In this document: piece by piece, positions 18,822-60,973 of the stretch
Numbering within the stretch: the stretch's first letter is position 1
Layout: every line of letters starts with the position of its first letter
NCBI GenBank assembly: GCA_024276955.1
Contig: JAJRWE010000033.1
Coordinates: 54-64,053, forward strand
DNA length: 64,000 bases
Reading direction: 5' to 3'
Source: Gammaproteobacteria bacterium
GTDB lineage: Bacteria; Pseudomonadota; Gammaproteobacteria; SZUA-152
Program-made: the position numbers and the translations under genes
The notes under the pieces: model-generated
The model's database searches: none
Told to the model about the DNA's origin: nothing
Seen by the model: only the letters and a program-made list of their open reading frames with translations

Positions 18822-20618
18822 TCAAGCGCCACTGCCACTTTTGGCGGCAAGAGATTGCTTCAATTGATGTTTTTCCTCATCACTGAGGTCGCCAAGACGG
18901 GACTTCGCGAGCAGGCGATCCAGCGCCTGCTCATCACGCAAGGCGGCGATATGCGACATCACATCGCTAAACTCGACCGCCAGTCCGTCCTCTGGCACAT
19001 CGACCGGCGACTGCGCCAGGCGTGCGAGATGCCGGCCTTCGTCCTGGCCCCGCCAGTGCTCGAGAATGGCACCACACCTTAAATGTGGGCTGTCACGCAA
19101 TAAATCAATCATTGCCTGTAGCAGTGACACACCGGGTAATTCGAGCCCCCGCAGGGCATCAAGTTCCGTCAGGCCTTCAGCCAGTTGCGGACGCTGCAAG
19201 AGCAGACGGATCGCACGGCGCACGGGCGAAGTGCCCGCCACCGGCGCACTGCGCCTGGGCGCCGCCGCCGGACGGGGGACGCCGGTCAGATCGGCCAGCG
19301 CTGCGGCATCGAGCCGGGCGATCTCCGCCAACTGCGTCGCCATCATGTGCCGAAACACACCCTGCGGCAGCTTTTTCAGCAGCGGCCGCGCCTGCTCCAC
19401 CAATTGCGCGCGGCCATCGATAGAGCCTAAATCGACCCTGCCCGATAAAGCATCAAAGAAATAGTTGGAAAATGGGCTGGCGTTCTCCAAACGCTGTTCA
19501 AAACCGGCCTGCCCTTCCTTGCGCACCAGGCTGTCCGGGTCTTCGCCATCGGGCAGAAACATGAAGCGGACCTGCCGACCCTCACTCAGCACCGGCAGGG
19601 CATTTTCCAATGCCCGCCAAGCAGCCTCCCGCCCGGCACGGTCGCCATCGAAACAAAACACCACCTGCGGAACAACACGAAACAGACGCTGCAAATGTTC
19701 CGCCGTGGTGGCCGTGCCGAGGGTGGCAACCACATTGCGCACGCCGAACTGCGCCAGCGACACCACGTCCATGTAGCCCTCCACCACCAGCAGGCGCTCC
19801 AGCTTGCGCACCGCCTTGCGCGCCTGGTAAAGACCATACAGCTCGCTGCCTTTATGAAACACCGGGGTCTCCGGCGAATTGAGGTATTTGGGCCCGGTCG
19901 CTCCCGCCGTCCTGGCTCCTGCGACATTCGCACCTCCCTGTGCATCATCTTCGCCGCCCATGACACGCCCGCCAAAGCCGATCACCCGGCCCCGGCGGTA
20001 ACGGATGGGAAACATGATACGCTCACGGAAGCGGTCATAGTGGCCGCCGTTGTCCCTGCGAATCAGCATGCCGGCCGTCAGCAGCCGCTCGGCCTTGACG
20101 CCCAGCGCGGCGGTCAGATTGTCCCAACCGGGCGGAGCGAAGCCCAGCTCGAACTCGGCGGCAATCTCACCGCTCAGGCCGCGCCCCTTGAGGTAGTCCT
20201 GTGCACGCTGTGCCTGCGGATGTTGGCGCAGCTGCTGACGGTAGTAATCGGCAGCCTTGCCCAACAGCTCGTACAAATCCTGATTATCGCGATCCGCTGA
20301 CGGCACCGACGAGCCGGCCTCGCGCGGCACCTCCAATGCGACCAAACCCGCTAGCTCCTCCACCGCCTCGACAAAGCCCATGTGCTCATATTCCATCAGA
20401 AAACCGATGGCCGAACCATGTACGCCACAGCCGAAACAGTGATAGAACTGCTTTTCGCGACTCACCGTGAACGACGGGGTCTTTTCGTTGTGGAAGGGGC
20501 AACAGGCGGTATATTCGCGGCCGGCCTTTCTCAGCGCCACGCGACCATCGATGACGTCGACAATATCGACGCGGGTCAGCAGTTCATCAATGAAATGGGG
20601 GGGGATGCGGCCAGCCAT
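18822..20618 (-). CDS. dnaG: DNA primase DnaG
   Basis: 598 aa; zinc-ribbon CCPFHNEKTPSFTVSREKQFYHCFGCG; TOPRIM core EGYMDVVSL...FDGDRAG. Confidence 0.95.
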   Translation of the reverse strand: MAGRIPPHFIDELLTRVDIVDVIDGRVALRKAGREYTACCPFHNEKTPSFTVSREKQFYHCFGCGVHGSAIGFLMEYEHMGFVEAVEELAGLVALEVPREAGSSVPSADRDNQDLYELLGKAADYYRQQLRQHPQAQRAQDYLKGRGLSGEIAAEFELGFAPPGWDNLTAALGVKAERLLTAGMLIRRDNGGHYDRFRERIMFPIRYRRGRVIGFGGRVMGGEDDAQGGANVAGARTAGATGPKYLNSPETPVFHKGSELYGLYQARKAVRKLERLLVVEGYMDVVSLAQFGVRNVVATLGTATTAEHLQRLFRVVPQVVFCFDGDRAGREAAWRALENALPVLSEGRQVRFMFLPDGEDPDSLVRKEGQAGFEQRLENASPFSNYFFDALSGRVDLGSIDGRAQLVEQARPLLKKLPQGVFRHMMATQLAEIARLDAAALADLTGVPRPAAAPRRSAPVAGTSPVRRAIRLLLQRPQLAEGLTELDALRGLELPGVSLLQAMIDLLRDSPHLRCGAILEHWRGQDEGRHLARLAQSPVDVPEDGLAVEFSDVMSHIAALRDEQALDRLLAKSRLGDLSDEEKHQLKQSLAAKSGSGA

Positions 20619-53497: not shown

Positions 53498-54592
53498 ATG
53501 AGCCGTCAAGCCCCGCCAAAAAGCACCAACGACAACTTCTTTCTGCCGGACTTCTGTTCCGTGCGCATGGTCTTCGCCGTGGTGGTCATCAGCGAGCTGC
53601 TGGCTATCGTCCTGACCCTGGCGCCGATGGAGAGCCGCAGTGGCCGCTGGGGTGATCTCAGCATCACCTCCCTGTTCATTCAATGGGTCGGCCTGAGCAG
53701 CGCCGCCGTGCTGTGCATCAGCCGCCCCCGACTGAGCCGTATGAATGAAACGCGGGCCGCCGTTACCAGCTATTTACTGTTACTCGTCACCACCCTGGTA
53801 ATCACCGAACTGGCCTGGTGGATCGGCCAGGAGATGCCCCATGCCGGCATCGGCAGCCAATGGAGCGCTGGCGGACGGCACACCGATCTGCTGCTGCGCA
53901 ATCTCGGCATCAGCGCCATCGTCAGCGCCCTGGTACTGCGCTACTTTTATGTTCAACAGCAGTGGAAGCAGAACATGCGCGCCGAGGCCGAGGCGCGCCT
54001 GCAGGCCCTGCAATCACGCATTCGTCCGCACTTCCTGTTCAACAGCCTCAATACCATCGCCAGCCTCACCCAGATCAACCCGCAGCAGGCCGAGGAGGCG
54101 GTGGAAAATCTTGCCGACCTGTTCCGCAACAGCATGGCCGACGCCAGCCACCAGATCACCCTCCGCGAAGAGCTGGCCCTTTCCCACCGCTATCTGGATA
54201 TCGAGACACTGCGTCTCGGTGATCGCCTGCAACTGCGCTGGTGCATCGACGAACTGCCGGGCGATGCCCTGGTGCCACGTCTCATCATTCAGCCACTGCT
54301 GGAAAACGCCATTTACCACGGCATCGAAACCATGGGCGCGGGCGGCATCATTGGCATAGACGGCCACCGGTATGACCGGGAAATCTACATCAGCATCAGC
54401 AATCCCCTACCCGCACAGCAGGACGCCAGACAACACCAGGGAAACCGCATTGCGGTGGAAAATATCCGCCAGCGTCTGGCCGCCATCTATGGCGAACAGG
54501 GAAGACTCACCACCCAGGCCGACGCCGACAGCTACATCACCACGATTACCCTCCCTTACACAACACTCGCTGATGTGGAGCCGAAGAAATGA
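53498..54592 (+). CDS. algZ: LytS/YehU-family sensor histidine kinase (AlgZ/FimS-like)
   Basis: 364 aa; 4+ TM helices then His_kinase domain (RIRPHFLFNSLNTIASL) and HATPase_c (IIQPLLENAIYHGIE). Confidence 0.8.
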   Translation: MSRQAPPKSTNDNFFLPDFCSVRMVFAVVVISELLAIVLTLAPMESRSGRWGDLSITSLFIQWVGLSSAAVLCISRPRLSRMNETRAAVTSYLLLLVTTLVITELAWWIGQEMPHAGIGSQWSAGGRHTDLLLRNLGISAIVSALVLRYFYVQQQWKQNMRAEAEARLQALQSRIRPHFLFNSLNTIASLTQINPQQAEEAVENLADLFRNSMADASHQITLREELALSHRYLDIETLRLGDRLQLRWCIDELPGDALVPRLIIQPLLENAIYHGIETMGAGGIIGIDGHRYDREIYISISNPLPAQQDARQHQGNRIAVENIRQRLAAIYGEQGRLTTQADADSYITTITLPYTTLADVEPKK

Positions 54593-55341
54593 AAGCGCTG
54601 ATCGTCGATGATGAACCCCTGGCCCGCACCCGCCTGGCACGCCTGCTGGATGATATTGACGGCATCGAAACCGCCGGTGAAGCCAGCACCGGACGCGAAG
54701 CGATTCAGCTGACCGACGCATTGAATCCGGATATTGTCCTGCTCGATATCCGCATGCCGGAAATGGACGGACTCGAGGCCGCCATGCACCTGTCACAACT
54801 GGACAGCCCGCCGGCGATCATTTTCACCACCGCCTACAATGAACACGCCCTGGCCGCCTTCGAGGCCAACGCCGTGGACTACCTGCTGAAACCCATTCGC
54901 CGCGAACGCCTGGCCGATGCCCTGGCCCGGGCACGGCGCATCAACCGCGCCCAGCTGCTTGACATCAACCAGCAGGAAGGCAGCGAAGAGAGTGCGCATG
55001 CGCGCACCCACATCAGCGCCAATATCGGCGGCAACTTGCAGTTAGTTTCCATTGAGGACGTGATTTATTTTCAAGCGGAACAAAAATACGTCACGGTGCG
55101 GCATCTCGGCGGGCAGCTGCTGATCGACGACCCGCTGAAATCACTGGAGGCGGAATTCAGTGACCGATTCCTGCGTGTGCACCGCAATTCCCTGGTCGCC
55201 ATGCAGTCCGTGCAGGGGCTTGAACGTATCCCCGGCGGACGCTACGAAATCTATTTCCGCACTATCGATGATCGGCTGGAAGTCAGTCGCCGGCTGGCAA
55301 CAGCGGTGCGCAGGCGGCTAAAGGGGGTGGGTCAGGTTTAA
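54589..55341 (+). CDS. algR: LytTR-family response regulator AlgR
   Basis: 250 aa; REC domain (LIVDDEPLAR...DIVLLDIRMP) plus LytTR DNA-binding domain; overlaps the algZ stop; argH-algZ-algR synteny as in pseudomonads. Confidence 0.85.
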   Translation: MKALIVDDEPLARTRLARLLDDIDGIETAGEASTGREAIQLTDALNPDIVLLDIRMPEMDGLEAAMHLSQLDSPPAIIFTTAYNEHALAAFEANAVDYLLKPIRRERLADALARARRINRAQLLDINQQEGSEESAHARTHISANIGGNLQLVSIEDVIYFQAEQKYVTVRHLGGQLLIDDPLKSLEAEFSDRFLRVHRNSLVAMQSVQGLERIPGGRYEIYFRTIDDRLEVSRRLATAVRRRLKGVGQV

Positions 55342-55407
55342 GCAACCATCCCGGCTTTTCAGGTGGCGCCGCAGAACCGTGTTACACACCAAAACAGCCT
55401 GCCTAAA

Positions 55408-56904
55408 TCACTGGTGATTTTTCCGGGTACCATAGAGTTTGATCTGCCATTTGATGAACGTACCGCTACCGCCCTCGGCCCTATCGACAGCCTTCAGCTG
55501 CCATTCCCCCCGGGACCGCTCGCCCAAATGCCGCATTGTTCCAAATCGCCAGTTATTGTACTGAAATACACCAAACATCTCGTTGTGCTGTTCGGCCAGA
55601 ACGCTTTCCGTTCCCTCGGGTGACGTCAGCACAATGTCCAGATCTCCCAGATTCGGGTGATCACTGGCATCGAAGAAAATATCGACAAATTCTATGTAAA
55701 GATCTCCGTCTACAAAGATTTCACTTTGCACGCCATCATTCTTACCATCTGGAATCGGCTCGCCAACATTCTGCTGATACTCAAGCATCTTTTCGTCACC
55801 CACACCCGCCCATTCTGCCGCAAATTGTACTGCCCTGTCTGCATCCACCAAACCGAATCCATATTGGTGATTGACAAGATAACCGGCGCCGTTCTCAATC
55901 CAATCCACATCGGAGGCATCATTCCGCCTGGCGCTCCTGGCGAGGATAATCCGCACATCCCGCCATGAGAGCCGCGGATTGGCTTCCAGCATCAAGGCCA
56001 CAACACCCGATACCATCGGTGCGGCTGCGGATGTACCACCGAAGTTGCCCGTGTAGCCTTGGTTTTCAAAGTCATCAGGAAACAGTGTGGGGTTATACCC
56101 ATCCTCCCCGGTAACATCGGTGGTCGTGATACCCAACCCTTCCGCACGCCCTTTCGAGGGTACACAGACAATCAGTGTCGCGCCCTTTTCAGAGTAAACC
56201 GCCTTTTTTCCATATTCATCGATGGCGCAGACAGGGATGGTGTAACGGTTGTTGACCAAACCGCTGTAATTGACGTTATCGATCGGCAGGTCATTGACGA
56301 CGCCATCACCGTTACCCGCGGCAAAAACATAGACAATACCCCGGCCGTTTCTGCCGTCAGTGACGCCATCGATCAACGCATCCCGTATCAGACTTTTCAG
56401 CGCCAGAGGCTCACCCCAGCTATTGATATCCCCCCAACTGTTATTAGAGATCCATACATGCTCTTTCTCTCTCACCAGGGCATCCGCCAGATTACTGACC
56501 GTTGCCAATCTCAAGGCATTGAAACCGATAATCCTGGCTTGCGGAGCAATGCCTTTGATTCCTTTTCCATTGCCTTCAACAGCGGCAATGATGCCAGCAG
56601 TCGCCGTACCATGGTCGGCCGCCTGCGAAAAACCATATTCCTCGGGCAGGTAGCTGTAACTCCCCTTGCCGATATTCGCTTGCAGGTCTTCATGAAAAAC
56701 GTCAATGCCATTGTCCACTGTAGCAACCAGCACACCCCGGCCTTTGTACCACGGTTGATTCAGATTGATATGCACAACGTCTGCATCACGAGCGCTGCCG
56801 GAAAGATACCACTGCTCGGCCGCGAGGGGATCGATCTCATAATCACTACCGCCGCAACTGACAAGAAAAACTAAACAGGCAGGAAGCAGGCTCAGGCGGC
56901 TCAT
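55408..56904 (-). CDS. Kexin-like S8 serine peptidase with C-terminal P-domain, lipoprotein, lacking an N-terminal prodomain
   Basis: 498 aa; lipobox LVSCGGS; catalytic triad motifs VATVDNGID (Asp), DHGTATAGIIAA (His), GTSAAAPMVSGV (Ser). C-terminal P-domain pattern HPNLGDLDIVLTSPEGTESVL...GEWQLKAVD...GTFIKWQIKLYG. The catalytic domain begins ~30 aa after the signal. Confidence 0.88.
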   Translation of the reverse strand: MSRLSLLPACLVFLVSCGGSDYEIDPLAAEQWYLSGSARDADVVHINLNQPWYKGRGVLVATVDNGIDVFHEDLQANIGKGSYSYLPEEYGFSQAADHGTATAGIIAAVEGNGKGIKGIAPQARIIGFNALRLATVSNLADALVREKEHVWISNNSWGDINSWGEPLALKSLIRDALIDGVTDGRNGRGIVYVFAAGNGDGVVNDLPIDNVNYSGLVNNRYTIPVCAIDEYGKKAVYSEKGATLIVCVPSKGRAEGLGITTTDVTGEDGYNPTLFPDDFENQGYTGNFGGTSAAAPMVSGVVALMLEANPRLSWRDVRIILARSARRNDASDVDWIENGAGYLVNHQYGFGLVDADRAVQFAAEWAGVGDEKMLEYQQNVGEPIPDGKNDGVQSEIFVDGDLYIEFVDIFFDASDHPNLGDLDIVLTSPEGTESVLAEQHNEMFGVFQYNNWRFGTMRHLGERSRGEWQLKAVDRAEGGSGTFIKWQIKLYGTRKNHQ

Positions 56905-57302
56905 TTTCTCAGGGTCAACCAGTACGGATAAGCAAACCGCACCTTGTCATCGAGATAAATCCGGTTGGCGATATCCAGAGAGGACTCCCTGTCGACGGTG
57001 CTGAAAAGATAATACCCGGAACCGATGCGAAGCCTTTTTAGCAGTGTTACGGCGTACCTTGCCTGAAAGTTCGCAAGGCTATCCGTACCTGGGGCATCGG
57101 AAAACTTGACGATGATATTGCCGGTCAGCCGGCGTTTGGGGGCATGTGATGAACCGCCAAAGCGATAGACATAGACGTCCAAAGTGGCATCGTAGCTACG
57201 CTCATGGATAAGCACTCTTCGGTCATCGTCATACCAGTACAAATCTCCACCCAGCACATTGAACGACAACAGGCTCAGAAGAAGAGGAAAAAGAAATCTC
57301 AT
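56901..57302 (-). CDS. Small secreted protein, possible trans-acting S8 prodomain/I9-like chaperone
   Basis: Start MRFLFPLLLSLLSFNVLGG (signal peptide). Mature ~110 aa shows prodomain-like pattern NIIVKF...YYLF...KVRFAYPYWLTLRK. ATGA overlaps with both neighbours. Confidence 0.35.
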   Translation of the reverse strand: MRFLFPLLLSLLSFNVLGGDLYWYDDDRRVLIHERSYDATLDVYVYRFGGSSHAPKRRLTGNIIVKFSDAPGTDSLANFQARYAVTLLKRLRIGSGYYLFSTVDRESSLDIANRIYLDDKVRFAYPYWLTLRK

Positions 57303-58558
57303 TGCCCCAGCCATTTCGGCATGGTGGAAACAAAATTGTAGCGGGTGGAAATTCGCGTGTCTGACCAATCACGGTCAATGGTTAGCGGCTTGCTGATGCG
57401 GGAGAAATCCCGGGAAACCACATAGACCCTGGCCAGGCTCCCGTCGCGGCTCTGCAACGTGAAGACCAGCCCATCCCCGATGGCATTGATACGTTCGAAT
57501 CGGTCACTGTATTCAAACGGGAATTCCTGCCAGGTATCCTTCTCCGAATCGTAACGAATCGCCCGCTGATCGCGGGTGAGAATGTAGATCGCCTCGTCCA
57601 CCGCAAAATAATGGTAGACACCCCCGTCGATCTTTTTCAGCCTGGTGTACGTCCACTCACCGCTTTTAGGATCCTCTTCGAAACGGTACAAGGTATCGCG
57701 CTCCATGCCGCGGTAATAGGCCTGAAATCGCGCCTCCACGGGATCATCGGGTATGGGTTGAGGCTGCTCAAGAAGATGTTCGTGGCCTTTTATGGCGGCT
57801 AGATAGCGCTCGGTTGCCGACCATAGCAGATAATACCGGTCACCATTACCGCGCACGTGAATGTCATTGAGACTGCCGGCCACCTTGCTCACCCGGGTAC
57901 GCCGGCCAGCATTCAAATCTAGCCGGTACAGCCCGGTATCGGGCGTTACAGTCTCTGGCGCCAGCAGTATATCGCCATAGATTCCTGCGCTGTCTCCTAG
58001 GGCCGCACCAAAACGATAAGAACGCTCCGGCCTGAAGCTTCGGTCATCCATACGAGAAAATGGAATATAGTGAGTATAAAGAAACACTTCTTTACCATCT
58101 TCACGGTACGAATGGCCGCGCTCTTTGTCTCGTATTAAAAAGGGTGAATCACCCAGAGACGCGTCCGGCGACTCTGCATGCAGGCGATTTGTCCCCACCA
58201 GAATGCCGTCCCGGTATGAAACAAACCTTACAGGCCCGTCAGAAAACCCGATCTGCTCAGCCTTTCCGTCCCGGTGAATAATCTCAAATCCCGCGTCCTC
58301 CTTTGCCGGGCCACGAAACTGGTAAGACGACAAGACAATATCCCGCTCACAGAGATAACTGCTCTGAAACCTCTGTTCCCCTTCATAGTGCTGAACCAGA
58401 CGAATTGCATTCGACGTTTTTTCGTAGGCCAGAAGATCAAACTGATTGCTCCCTGACACAACGAAGGTATTGTCGCAGTCAGTCACCACCGCCGTTTCAA
58501 CATCAGGCCTGCAGCCCAGCAATACGACGATCGTGATCAGAAACAGAAATATTGGCAT
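57299..58558 (-). CDS. Hypothetical lipoprotein
   Basis: 419 aa; lipobox LLGCRP; no recognisable catalytic motifs; beta-rich composition. Confidence 0.45.
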   Translation of the reverse strand: MPIFLFLITIVVLLGCRPDVETAVVTDCDNTFVVSGSNQFDLLAYEKTSNAIRLVQHYEGEQRFQSSYLCERDIVLSSYQFRGPAKEDAGFEIIHRDGKAEQIGFSDGPVRFVSYRDGILVGTNRLHAESPDASLGDSPFLIRDKERGHSYREDGKEVFLYTHYIPFSRMDDRSFRPERSYRFGAALGDSAGIYGDILLAPETVTPDTGLYRLDLNAGRRTRVSKVAGSLNDIHVRGNGDRYYLLWSATERYLAAIKGHEHLLEQPQPIPDDPVEARFQAYYRGMERDTLYRFEEDPKSGEWTYTRLKKIDGGVYHYFAVDEAIYILTRDQRAIRYDSEKDTWQEFPFEYSDRFERINAIGDGLVFTLQSRDGSLARVYVVSRDFSRISKPLTIDRDWSDTRISTRYNFVSTMPKWLGQ

Positions 58559-59871
58559 GTCCCAACCTTCTTTTTCTTCGACTCAGCCATCTTTACAACA
58601 AGGGTGTGATTCAAAATGTCATTAGGAAAAACGACCCAGCCACCATTGCTATCCAGATCGATATCCCTCCATTCGGGGCGCGACGATCCCGGCCGGGCAG
58701 TTTGCCTGTAGGCTTGCCAGACGAGTTGCGAGCAATAGGTTCTGTCATCGGCGTTCTTGTTGAAAAAGTTCCAGTTATAAGGCTTGTTAACTTGGCCCAT
58801 TGCCCAATTGACAATAGCGAACATGCGCTGCGTAACGTAGTTATAATAGTTTTTTCCACTCTGCGAGCAGTCCTTGTAATCGCAGGGCGGTGTAAAGTTT
58901 GGCCATCCGATGGAATGGGCGTAAGTATACCGCCTGACAGTATCGTACTTCTTTTGCCATGCATCCATTAGGAGAGCGCCTTGATGCAGGTTAACCCCTC
59001 CAGTATTGGCGTCCACGATCGACAACCATGCACCACCTGGCCTACTCCAAGACCAGGGCAGCGCCCCTCTCGCTATCTCGCCTTCCGTATTATTGAAGTG
59101 GGTTACAATTCCCATGTGGCCAAAACCAGCTCCTCCATCGCTCCAGATGATATCGCCAGGACGCCAGGCCCAGTCGGAAATATCCGATTCATGCTTGTAC
59201 TCGGGTTTCTCGTCTTTCTTCTTGTCCTTACCCCCGCCGCCCTTCATCGACGAGCTGTAGATAATGTACTTTGGGGCTCGGCCGGGCAACTCGTAGGGCA
59301 GGTTGTATTTTTCCACCAGTTTTTCCTGAGCCTTGAGGAAAACTGCATCATCTTTCGCCGTTTCCACTTCCAATGCCTTCAAGCGCGCAATCTCCTCCTC
59401 GGCCGACACTCCGAGGTCGAAGTAACGCACGGCGTCGGGAAGAGAATCCATATCGACCGCTGGAGGCCTGGCGCTCATCGCCTCATAGTCGCCGCTGTAC
59501 CAGGTCTCGCTCATCTGGGAAATCATGGCGCCAAACTGCCCGCTGACCTGCAACAACAGCATCCCGCTGCGGAACTCTGCAATGCTCCCCTCCACATCTT
59601 CACCTTTGGCGTACTGCAAAGCAAAGCCGTTGGCCACCAACTTGATCTCATTGATGACGGTGGCCTTGAACTCTTCCGGAAAGCCATATTCGCCGAAATA
59701 TTCGTCATAAAGCCAATCGGCATTCATGAAATTCTGGATTTCGACAGAGGCCGTCTCGGGTGAGGCGTATTCGACTTGAGGTTGATCGGGTGATGCGGCG
59801 TGATCTCCCTCGCTACATCCCGCCATAAAAAAAGCACTCAGAACAACATAGACAATAACCCTTTTCATCAT
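58537..59871 (-). CDS. Lipoprotein with C-terminal permuted papain-like (YiiX/C92-like) hydrolase domain
   Basis: 444 aa; lipobox FMAGCSEG; C-terminal RPGDIIWSDGGAGFGHMGIV (His first)...YNWNF...DDRTYCSQLVWQAY (Cys last), the order typical of permuted NlpC/P60-like YaeF/YiiX amidases; lysine-rich linker GGGGKDKKKDEKPEYK. Confidence 0.5.
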   Translation of the reverse strand: MMKRVIVYVVLSAFFMAGCSEGDHAASPDQPQVEYASPETASVEIQNFMNADWLYDEYFGEYGFPEEFKATVINEIKLVANGFALQYAKGEDVEGSIAEFRSGMLLLQVSGQFGAMISQMSETWYSGDYEAMSARPPAVDMDSLPDAVRYFDLGVSAEEEIARLKALEVETAKDDAVFLKAQEKLVEKYNLPYELPGRAPKYIIYSSSMKGGGGKDKKKDEKPEYKHESDISDWAWRPGDIIWSDGGAGFGHMGIVTHFNNTEGEIARGALPWSWSRPGGAWLSIVDANTGGVNLHQGALLMDAWQKKYDTVRRYTYAHSIGWPNFTPPCDYKDCSQSGKNYYNYVTQRMFAIVNWAMGQVNKPYNWNFFNKNADDRTYCSQLVWQAYRQTARPGSSRPEWRDIDLDSNGGWVVFPNDILNHTLVVKMAESKKKKVGTCQYFCF

Positions 59872-59920
59872 TCTCTCCCAGAGCTTCCTATCACTGAATT
59901 TTATGTCCGTATAAACCCTA

Positions 59921-59931
59921 CCCCCCCCCCA
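59921..59931. promoter_or_regulatory. Homopolymeric C(11) tract (G11 on the coding strand) in the putative promoter spacer of the four-gene operon
   Basis: Minus strand reads TTGACA-taatttcct-GGGGGGGGGGG-TAGGGTttat...(~40 nt)...GGGAGAGAATGATG. The tract lies between the -35-like and -10-like hexamers. Confidence 0.6.
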
Positions 59932-60048
59932 GGAAATTATGTCAAGTGCGAAATTACCACCCCGGCAATCCAGCCGGCCATTTTTGCGACCGACATGCCG
60001 TAACCGACAGGGAATCGAAAGTCTTGACAGAATAGTCAGTGCAGGGGC

Positions 60049-60120
60049 TGGAGCGCACCCCCGGCGGACGCTACGAAATCTATTTCCGCACTATCGATGG
60101 TCGGCTGAAGGGGATAGGCG
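60049..60120 (+). repeat. Imperfect direct repeat (~73 bp) of the algR 3' coding end (55210-55282)
   Basis: gtgcaggggctggagcgcacccccggcggacgctacgaaatctatttccgcactatcgatggtcggctgaag vs algR gtgcaggggcttgaacgtatccccggcggacgctacgaaatctatttccgcactatcgatgatcggctggaag. The reading frame is preserved (VQGLERTPGGRYEIYFRTIDGRLK...). Confidence 0.9.
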
Positions 60121-60180
60121 GCTAGTCGACCACGAAGGTCGCGAAGAAGTGGTTCGAAATATCACGAAAAAAGACATCAA

Positions 60181-60342
60181 CCGTAGGAGCGGGCCATGCC
60201 CGCGATGGTCACGATATTGTAGGAGCGCCTTCAGGCGCGACAGCCAGAATCAATCAAACTGTCGCGCCTGAAGACACTCCTACAAGTGCATCGATGAAGC
60301 CTTGATGATAAAACCATCGCGGGCATGGCCCGCTCCTACGGG
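60181..60342. repeat. REP-like nested palindromic element
   Basis: Outer 28 bp perfect inverted repeat ccgtaggagcgggccatgcccgcgatgg / ccatcgcgggcatggcccgctcctacgg. Inner imperfect inverted repeat tgtaggagcgccttcaggcgcgacag / ctgtcgcgcctgaagacactcctaca. Confidence 0.85.
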
Positions 60343-60866
60343 CCCGTACCCTGACGTAACAGTACACGTGCCACATCGATGGCCTGATCCAGATAGGCAG
60401 GGTAGAAATCCGGCGAGGTGTAGCCGACGATCCTGGGCACCAGCTCACGGCCCTCGCCATCCAGCAGGTAGAGGGTGGGCACCATACCGACCCTCTTCCG
60501 CCGCACCAACTCGTCGGCACTGATTTCCCGCCCCTGGAAATCACGCAGGCTGTCCGCCGTCTCCAGCATGATTTTGCGCAACAGCACCCGACGCGGGTCG
60601 TCACCGACCAGTTTCATCGGCCCCAGTACCTCGGCCTCCAGTCGCTCACAAAAGTGGCAGTCTTCACTGGCGAACATCAACAGGATCGGCACACCGGCCT
60701 CGCGCACCATGCGGCCCAGTGCCTGCAGGTCACTGACCTCCGTCAGTTGTGTGTGGGGGCCGTCCTCGGCCATATCGTCTTCATCGGCCAGCACCGGCAA
60801 GGCGAACAGGCCCAGCAGTGCCAGTGCAAGCCATTGGCAGATAATGGAATTTTGTAATCTGCTCAT
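60336..60866 (-). CDS. Periplasmic thioredoxin-fold protein (CxxC)
   Basis: 176 aa; signal peptide; MFASEDCHFCERLE CxxC; the 3' end runs into the REP arm, so the true stop may differ. Confidence 0.6.
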   Translation of the reverse strand: MSRLQNSIICQWLALALLGLFALPVLADEDDMAEDGPHTQLTEVSDLQALGRMVREAGVPILLMFASEDCHFCERLEAEVLGPMKLVGDDPRRVLLRKIMLETADSLRDFQGREISADELVRRKRVGMVPTLYLLDGEGRELVPRIVGYTSPDFYPAYLDQAIDVARVLLRQGTGP

Positions 60867-60902: not shown

Positions 60903-60973
60903 CGTAGGAGCGGACCCTCGGGCCGCGAAAGGGCCCTGATGCCAAACCTTCGCGGCCGAGGGTCCGCTCCCAC
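60903..60973. repeat. REP-like palindrome (gtaggagcggaccctcgggccgcgaa ... ttcgcggccgagggtccgctcccac)
   Basis: ~23 bp stem with ~19 nt loop; same GTAGGAGCGG core as the other two elements. Confidence 0.8.

Follow-up and report, generated by a model that had tools for sequence, protein, structure and literature searches.

A run of ten G residues lies between candidate −35 and −10 hexamers at the head of a mobile four-gene cassette for exported lipoproteins and a subtilase-type protease, and the locus is probably an ordinary slippage-based expression switch in an unusual host, an uncultured marine or vent bacterium. The window in which it was found, i.e., the whole stretch of gammaproteobacterial DNA that was analysed, is 64,000 nt long. 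In the mechanism that we propose, slipped-strand mispairing at replication would add or remove 1-2 G, and each change in G count would alter both the −35/−10 spacing and the helical phasing of the two hexamers. G8-G9 (17-18 nt spacer) would correspond to high expression and G10-G11 (19-20 nt) to low expression, with the assembled G10 representing the low-expression state. The whole four-gene cassette would follow, its genes being translationally coupled, and the population would consist of a mix of high- and low-expressing cells, with a graded response. We give about an even chance to the proposal that slippage in this spacer sets the expression of the cassette; the choice of hexamers by RNA polymerase, the variation of tract length among cells of the population and the dependence of expression on this length are all things that we infer.

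An Acquired Lipoprotein/Protease Cassette

The four genes of the cassette, all on the minus strand, overlap or abut, and neither a promoter nor a terminator stands out in the interior of the operon:

58537..59871, minus strand: gene 1, a 444-aa lipoprotein (lipobox FMAGC) whose C-terminal domain is a permuted papain-like amidase of the Peptidase_C92/YiiX-like type
57299..58558, minus strand: gene 2, a 419-aa predicted lipoprotein (LLGC) without known domain, mostly beta strands
56901..57368, minus strand: gene 3, a small exported protein, 155 aa from TTG
55408..56904, minus strand: gene 4, a 498-aa lipoprotein, S8 subtilase with P-domain (furin/kexin-like), without a propeptide of its own

The C92 domain of gene 1 was recognized as a match to PF05708 (2e-9); His252 and Cys380 are invariant across the family, which is rare (41 representative clusters at E<=1e-10 among 1.84 billion). 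Gene 4 matches PF00082 (5e-41) and PF01483 (4e-18), and its best matches among solved structures are furin (1e-52), kexin (1.5e-48), and the Aeromonas protease ASP (2e-35). For gene 3, a start at the ATG at 57302, which overlaps the gene 2 stop and gives 133 aa, is more likely than the TTG, and a similarity search with its product found nothing detectable. The structure predictions for genes 2 and 3 (pLDDT 36 and 47, respectively) are too poor for fold comparison; of note, the C-terminal half of gene 3 follows a beta-alpha-beta-beta-alpha order in the low-confidence model (pLDDT 47).

The kexin-like serine protease ASP of Aeromonas sobria has a separate chaperone, ORF2. Like ASP (PDB 3hjr, 3wqb), the gene 4 protein combines an S8 domain with a P-domain, lacks a propeptide, and is encoded beside a small protein of about 130-150 aa; unlike in the Aeromonas case, this small protein is encoded upstream of the protease and has no detectable similarity to anything. 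By analogy with ASP/ORF2, gene 3 may thus encode a separate propeptide or chaperone for the S8 protease. A PADLOC search of the cassette proteins returned only a generic subtilase match for gene 4 and no defence system, and the domain search found no regulator gene in the cassette. Lipoproteins and other exported products are the class that is usually placed under slippage switches, which counts in favour of such a switch here.

The cassette is a 4.7-kb low-GC insertion (GC 0.49-0.56 over about 55250-60250, versus about 0.61 on either side) in the last codons of a gene for a LytTR/AlgR-like response regulator (54589-55341). It is bounded by two direct-repeat copies of 74 nt that are 92% identical:

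55205..55278, plus strand: left copy, in the 3' end of the LytTR/AlgR-like response-regulator gene
60034..60107, plus strand: right copy, left over from the 3' end that the regulator gene had originally, with 42 nt deleted from its interior

In all, the duplication covers about 125 nt of the regulator 3' end (55205-55341 and 60034-60125), and the right copy retains the original stop codon. The empty site is found in two close relatives (L030 and L031), where the regulator, a thioredoxin-like gene, TauE, and a GGDEF-EAL gene are present with nothing between them; in these contigs, one of which comes from a MAG labelled Chromatiales, the regulator is at least 90% identical to that of the window. 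Neither an integrase nor a transposase was found within the insertion. The cassette is evidently a recent horizontal acquisition. In its nearest relatives (69-84% protein identity), which come from other Gammaproteobacteria MAGs, the cassette occupies a different site, flanked by an MCP gene and by mnmG (gidA). Homology with the cassette of one of these lineages (L001) extends from CACTTGACA, 3 nt upstream of TTGACA, to just past the stop codon of the S8 gene, and upstream of the former boundary the two share no sequence. Since homology is limited by the promoter on one side and by the S8 stop on the other, the transferable unit consists of the promoter and the four genes.

Nested perfect inverted repeats of the REP type, one of them terminator-like, part the cassette from the upstream genes on the same strand, so that the cassette should depend on its own promoter. 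These repeats are built on GTAGGAGCG and include a 29-nt perfect pair (60181-60209 / 60313-60341), inside which lies a 27-nt pair (60217-60243 / 60259-60285); a further inverted-repeat pair is found at 60904-60921 / 60956-60973. They yield spurious microRNA matches in Rfam.

The G-Tract and Its Candidate Promoter

Read on the minus strand, the region upstream of gene 1 is organized as CAC-TTGACA-TAATTTCCT-G10-TAGGGT-TTATACGGACA-TAAAAT-N19-GGGAGAG-A-ATG, with the following elements:

59940..59945, minus strand: TTGACA, candidate −35 hexamer, 6/6
59936..59944, minus strand: TGACATAAT, extended −10-like (8/9 of TGnTATAAT), an alternative promoter element read from the sequence
59921..59930, minus strand: G10 tract (C10 on the plus strand), candidate slipped-strand mispairing site
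59915..59920, minus strand: TAGGGT, candidate −10 hexamer, 3/6 (T-12, A-11, and T-7 present), abutting the tract
59898..59903, minus strand: TAAAAT, −10-like (5/6), conserved, 17 nt downstream of the tract
59873..59879, minus strand: GGGAGAG, Shine-Dalgarno-like, of which GGGAG is invariant in orthologues
59871, minus strand: first base of the gene 1 ATG

The initial annotation had counted 11 C at 59921-59931, about 50 nt upstream of the first ATG of an operon for secreted lipoproteins and a protease, and had placed them between TTGACA and TAGGGT in a 20-nt spacer that the loss of 2-3 G would bring to 17-18 nt. The homopolymer does lie at this place, with its first C 50 nt from 59871, the hexamers flank it as described, and exported lipoproteins and an S8 protease are indeed encoded downstream. 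The numbers need correction: base 59931 is an A, so that the run ends at 59930 and counts 10 C, the spacer is 19 nt (9 nt plus G10; 17 nt if G8), and the loss of 1-2 G already gives 18-17 nt.

Counting all four bases, the 64-kb window has no other homopolymer as long as C10, and the next G/C runs are one of 8 and one of 7. The number of G/C runs drops about five-fold per extra base, and 0.02-0.05 runs of at least 10 are expected per 64 kb, whether from the run-length decay in the window or from Markov extension of order 2-5 (a first-order model gives about 0.27). A run of 10 is unusual for a single window and is not extraordinary genome-wide; as a genome of a few Mb is expected to hold one to a few runs of at least 10, the tract alone proves little. 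Its ten uninterrupted residues exceed the length of about 8-9 nt from which slippage is frequent, and its position before the ATG sets it apart from translational switches, in which the homopolymer lies in the 5' coding region.

Two other runs were considered as switch candidates and rejected as background. The first is the G8 on the plus strand at 20597-20604, which corresponds to C8 in codons 5-7 (Ile-Pro-Pro) of dnaG, the presumably essential gene for DNA primase (18822-20618, minus strand, Pfam domains confirmed); as an internal control, it can serve to gauge how often homopolymers are misread. The second is a G10 in a relative of the cassette locus (L008:434-443), i.e., C10 on the coding strand, which is built from the T-arm and acceptor stem of a tRNA-Leu gene.

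T-12, A-11, and T-7, which TAGGGT retains, are the three most important positions of a −10 hexamer. Under a crude sigma-70 scoring matrix built on consensus frequencies, TTGACA-N-TAGGGT is the top sigma-70 pair at every tract length from G6 to G12; the score peaks at G8, and the pair at G10 lies about 2.7 bits below this peak. A strict sigma-70 scan of 59700-60400 called no promoter, the tract region being passed over because the spacer exceeds 18 nt and the −10 is only 3/6. Inspection of the promoter region by eye found no match to sigma-54 or ECF-type motifs, and TAAAAT has no usable −35, GGGGGG occupying that spot. The TTGACA/TAGGGT pair is the only evident promoter for the cassette, and a promoter formed by these candidate hexamers with the tract in its spacer is the most economical and most likely reading of the region. 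That the tract lies between the −35 and −10 of a sigma-70-type promoter is partly supported, the apparent geometry being right in outline. Of note, TTGACATAAT also holds TGACATAAT, which overlaps the apparent −35 and from which a start at about 59929, inside the tract, is predicted; furthermore, the spacer segment TAATTTCCT is conserved as well as the hexamers. An Rfam search of the leader found no relevant RNA family, and its fold z-score of +0.27 is not that of a stable leader.

The Tract in Orthologous Promoters

In the closest orthologues (69-81% protein identity), a G-rich tract occupies the same position and takes different forms, namely G10 in the window, G9 in L004, and G2TG6 (GGTGGGGGG) in the L001 lineage:

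Window: TTTCC-T-G10-T-AGGGTTTAT
L004 (73% identity): TTTCC-AT-G9-C-AGGGTTAAT
L001 lineage (81% identity): TTTCC-T-GGTGGGGGG-C-AGGGTTTAT

The non-coding bases around the tracts vary, and the −10 equivalent is CAGGGT in both orthologous lineages, i.e., its first base is C and not T. The interrupted tract of the L001 type, present in L001/L002/L003/L023/L027-29, is invariant across at least five assemblies; this is expected because the run is interrupted, and it provides no positive sign of switching.

The window lineage is represented by one assembly, and tract-length differences are seen only between diverged lineages. An exact protein look-up for gene 1 returned no further sample of this lineage, in homologue searches with genes 1-3 the source contig was the sole match at 100% identity, and neither a DNA pattern scan of viral contigs nor the plasmid and phage collections yielded one. 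The start of the L004 contig, 7 nt before its G9, was considered as a sign of length heterogeneity and rejected, since a length bubble would break the assembly graph within the run and not upstream of it.

Tracts in Other Cassette Clades

More distant relatives of the cassette (28-44% identity) were compared by counting G/C runs of at least 8 within −150 to +80 of the start codon. Four separate clades carry such runs: the window clade, L008, L010, and L005 together with L017/18. In L008, the promoter region reads TTGACA-ATGTA-C12-NN-ACCCCCGT-TAGTAT, about 100 nt upstream of the ATG, and in L010, a contig of 37% GC, a G8 directly abuts TAGAAT about 60 nt upstream of the ATG. Both clades thus have the tract next to a TAGNNT hexamer, in the same layout as the window, and L008 also has TTGACA upstream. 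In the public record of L008 (CXWL01078991.1), the NN falls within the poly-C of the promoter (L008:2872-2891), which indicates that the assembler could not resolve this run.

The tracts of L005 (from sample Ga0256833) and L017/18 (from ERZ23491300) lie in coding sequence: a G9 directly follows the lipobox Cys codon (TGT-GGGGGGGGG). As assembled, this G9 is out of frame and G8 would restore the frame, so that gene callers start these proteins at internal codons. All three assemblies have the OFF length, with the caveat that L017 and L018 may share a sample. The signal peptide encoded upstream of the out-of-frame G9 is well conserved between L005 and L017, and the G9 itself is retained between L005 and L017/18 at 70% protein identity and 38-40% GC.

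The four gains contrast with the background of the same loci, in which 148 kb of surrounding sequence contain three G/C runs of at least 8 (in dnaG, in the tRNA-Leu gene, and in frame within a coding sequence). From this background, 0.07 events are expected in the 3.4 kb of 5' regions, versus 4 found (Poisson P about 9e-7). Many cassette relatives are without any tract, and the closest relatives of each tract-bearing clade are tract-less. Lineage L033-37, for instance, is 73% identical to L008 and has an unrelated upstream region without tract; length variants of the poly-C were sought in this sister lineage, among 13 contigs with identical protein, and no tract is present there. Alignment of the upstream regions of clades A and B revealed no credible homology. 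In two clades, uninterrupted G9-G10 tracts have been retained over 27-30% protein divergence.

This recurrence in separate clades, together with retention over such divergence, is the main ground for taking the window tract for a selected switch, and the comparative data raise the likelihood of slippage-based switching there. Several points stand against a spacer switch: the −10 is weak, with C as first base in the orthologues, the strict scan is empty, the L001-type tract is invariant, G/C runs of 8-10 also occur without a switch role, and many relatives are tract-less. As to the form that switching would take, promoter-spacer tracts usually give graded and not strictly ON/OFF expression. The stochastic switching of the operon that had been annotated initially agrees with the differing tract lengths of orthologues and with the independent tracts of other clades, a graded response being more usual than ON/OFF control.

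Other Readings of the Tract

That the tract is neutral, i.e., tolerated in an inherited G-rich promoter in which it mutates at times, with the cassette decaying in several lineages, seems to us fairly unlikely. The runs in dnaG and tRNA show that long G/C runs exist without a switch role, and the invariant tract of the L001 lineage and the tract-less state of most clades would also be explained. Moreover, gene 1 has been broken by ordinary mutations, namely a deletion in L002/L003/L027-29, a TGA in L004, and a frameshift in L033-37, a pattern that would fit decay as well as repeated selection for silencing of gene 1. Four independent gains at 5' ends, against the 0.07 expected, are difficult to reconcile with neutrality, as is the persistence of uninterrupted G9-G10 over 27-30% divergence, including in genomes of 38-40% GC, where such runs are very improbable. 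In addition, the conservation of the signal peptide upstream of the G9 between L005 and L017 argues that the ON frame is used. Taken together, the statistics on enrichment and on retention speak against a purely neutral tract.

A quite unlikely reading, which starts from the same promoter region, is that the extended −10 TGACATAAT (59944-59936) is the true promoter. Transcripts would then start at about 59929, with the leading G's of the tract, and their reiterative transcription would damp or tune expression, perhaps in response to the levels of GTP and of the next nucleotide, tract length having little or only a graded effect. In support of this, TGACATAAT is identical in the L001 lineage, along with the TTCCT that follows it; such a promoter would account for the perfectly conserved TAATTTCCT, and the T-to-C change at the first base of TAGGGT in orthologues would cost nothing. 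Reiterative initiation at homopolymeric start regions is established, and the window would resemble pyrG and pyrBI in that the transcript begins in a homopolymeric run (PMC8812562, PMC7039003). Unlike the window with its 10-nt run, the known cases involve runs of 3-4 nt and nucleotide-metabolism genes, and no described precedent for a reiterative start on a 10-nt run before a lipoprotein cassette was found in the literature. The other clades also fit poorly: L010 lacks an element of this kind at the proper distance before its G8, which instead abuts TAGAAT, a 5/6 hexamer; the L008 hexamer at this position, CAATGT, is a poor one, and transcripts would have to begin on C's; and the frame switch by G9 in the coding sequence of L005 and L017 is left unexplained. 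Furthermore, a poly-G 5' end would find neither a structure nor a C/U-rich partner in the leader.

We regard as very unlikely that the G-run is a recognition or structural element, such as a regulator site or, with the adjacent GGG, a G-quadruplex, and not a length switch. No other non-coding block is as well conserved in the three orthologous lineages as the G-run with AGGGTT, which speaks for this reading. Yet the length and interruption of the run differ between them (G10, G9, G2TG6), and no motif is common to the other clades, since the L008 tract is C on the coding strand and those of L005 and L017 lie within coding sequence; nor does the cassette contain a regulator gene. The G-quadruplex was rejected, as one G10 and one GGG cannot form four well-separated G3 runs. 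Finally, it is hardly credible that the tract or its length is an artefact of assembly or sequencing: homopolymer length is error-prone, the L008 tract contains NN, and the source is apparently an assembly from an uncultured organism, whose proteins occur once, on a 67.6-kb NCBI contig, but the tract is internal to the contig, and independent assemblies of other samples have homologous tracts.

Comparison With Known Slippage Switches

The reading of the tract as a slippage switch in a promoter spacer has close counterparts in Neisseria. There, porA (poly-G), fetA/frpB (poly-C), and opc (poly-C) are subject to phase variation through homopolymers in the spacers of surface-protein promoters, and tract length sets the spacing and thereby how strongly the gene is transcribed (PMC5320596, citing van der Ende 1995, Carson 2000). 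As in porA and fetA, a G/C run of about 10 nt lies between −35 and −10 hexamers in the window, where the hexamers are candidates. Unlike in Neisseria, the −10 of the window is weak, the start site, length polymorphism and expression effect are predictions, the bacterium is an uncultured marine/vent gammaproteobacterium (nearest named relatives Chromatiales MAGs) and not a host-restricted pathogen, and the tract heads a four-gene mobile cassette.

In Bordetella pertussis, a C-stretch in the fim2 and fim3 promoters alters the distance between an upstream element and the −10, which switches the expression of a surface structure; these promoters depend on the activator BvgA. The window shares with them a poly-C/G tract in a promoter; unlike in fim2/fim3, no activator site upstream of TTGACA is conserved between orthologues.

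Coding-sequence tracts provide another point of comparison. The NalP protein of N. meningitidis is a phase-variable, subtilisin-like (S8) lipoprotein protease of the cell surface with a poly-C tract in its coding sequence (PMC3723659, PMC3025981), and the poly-G loci of Campylobacter jejuni are contingency genes of the coding-sequence type as well (PMC3025981). The G9 after the lipobox Cys codon in L005 and L017/18 follows this classical translational ON/OFF design. Unlike in NalP, the window tract lies in a promoter, and the gene that would be switched in L005 and L017/18 encodes the C92 amidase lipoprotein and not the S8 protease.

Possible Significance

The mechanism proposed here is already known; what is new is its setting and the mobile, uncharacterised lipoprotein/protease cassette that seemingly attracts tracts repeatedly. 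To our knowledge, nearly all documented contingency loci that are driven by slippage belong to host-adapted pathogens or commensals. More tentatively than for the window tract itself, we suggest that the cassette could be a contingency locus of uncultured marine/hydrothermal bacteria that has been put under homopolymer control at least four times, in promoters as well as in coding sequence. If this is true, the same form of bet-hedging would exist in environmental or symbiotic uncultured Gammaproteobacteria, and perhaps in other groups, in marine and vent metagenomes, i.e., in organisms for which phase variation is scarcely documented. The lipoprotein/protease module would then be a surface trait under strong fluctuating selection, of which phage, predators, or recognition by an animal host could for instance be the source. 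If the tract proves to be stable in length, it is merely part of the G-rich promoter of an acquired operon.

Variants of Gene 1

Two gene 1 alleles are found in a lineage of near-identical sequences, with an identical promoter in both. The first is intact, with GCGGGATGC (lipobox MAGC; L001, L023), and the second carries a 1-nt deletion, GCGGATGC (L002:5895-5915, L003, L027-L029), that frameshifts the signal peptide. In L004 (L004:115-125), the lipobox Cys codon of gene 1 is replaced by TGA (FLVTG*GEGD) and the remainder is open; this would be a nonsense allele, recoding being much less likely. The 77-aa protein P0067 is 87% identical to residues 1-63 of the gene 1 protein and differs from it beyond FGEY, which points to a further close relative whose gene 1 copy is frameshifted or truncated. 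In the L033-L037 lineage (gene L033:1501-2523), the same frameshift is present in all 13 contigs, shortly before the catalytic Cys region, and shortens the C92 protein to 340 aa instead of about 374, the rest being readable in another frame. This lineage also has an in-frame G8 (L033:2198), which encodes Trp-Gly-Gly-Trp.
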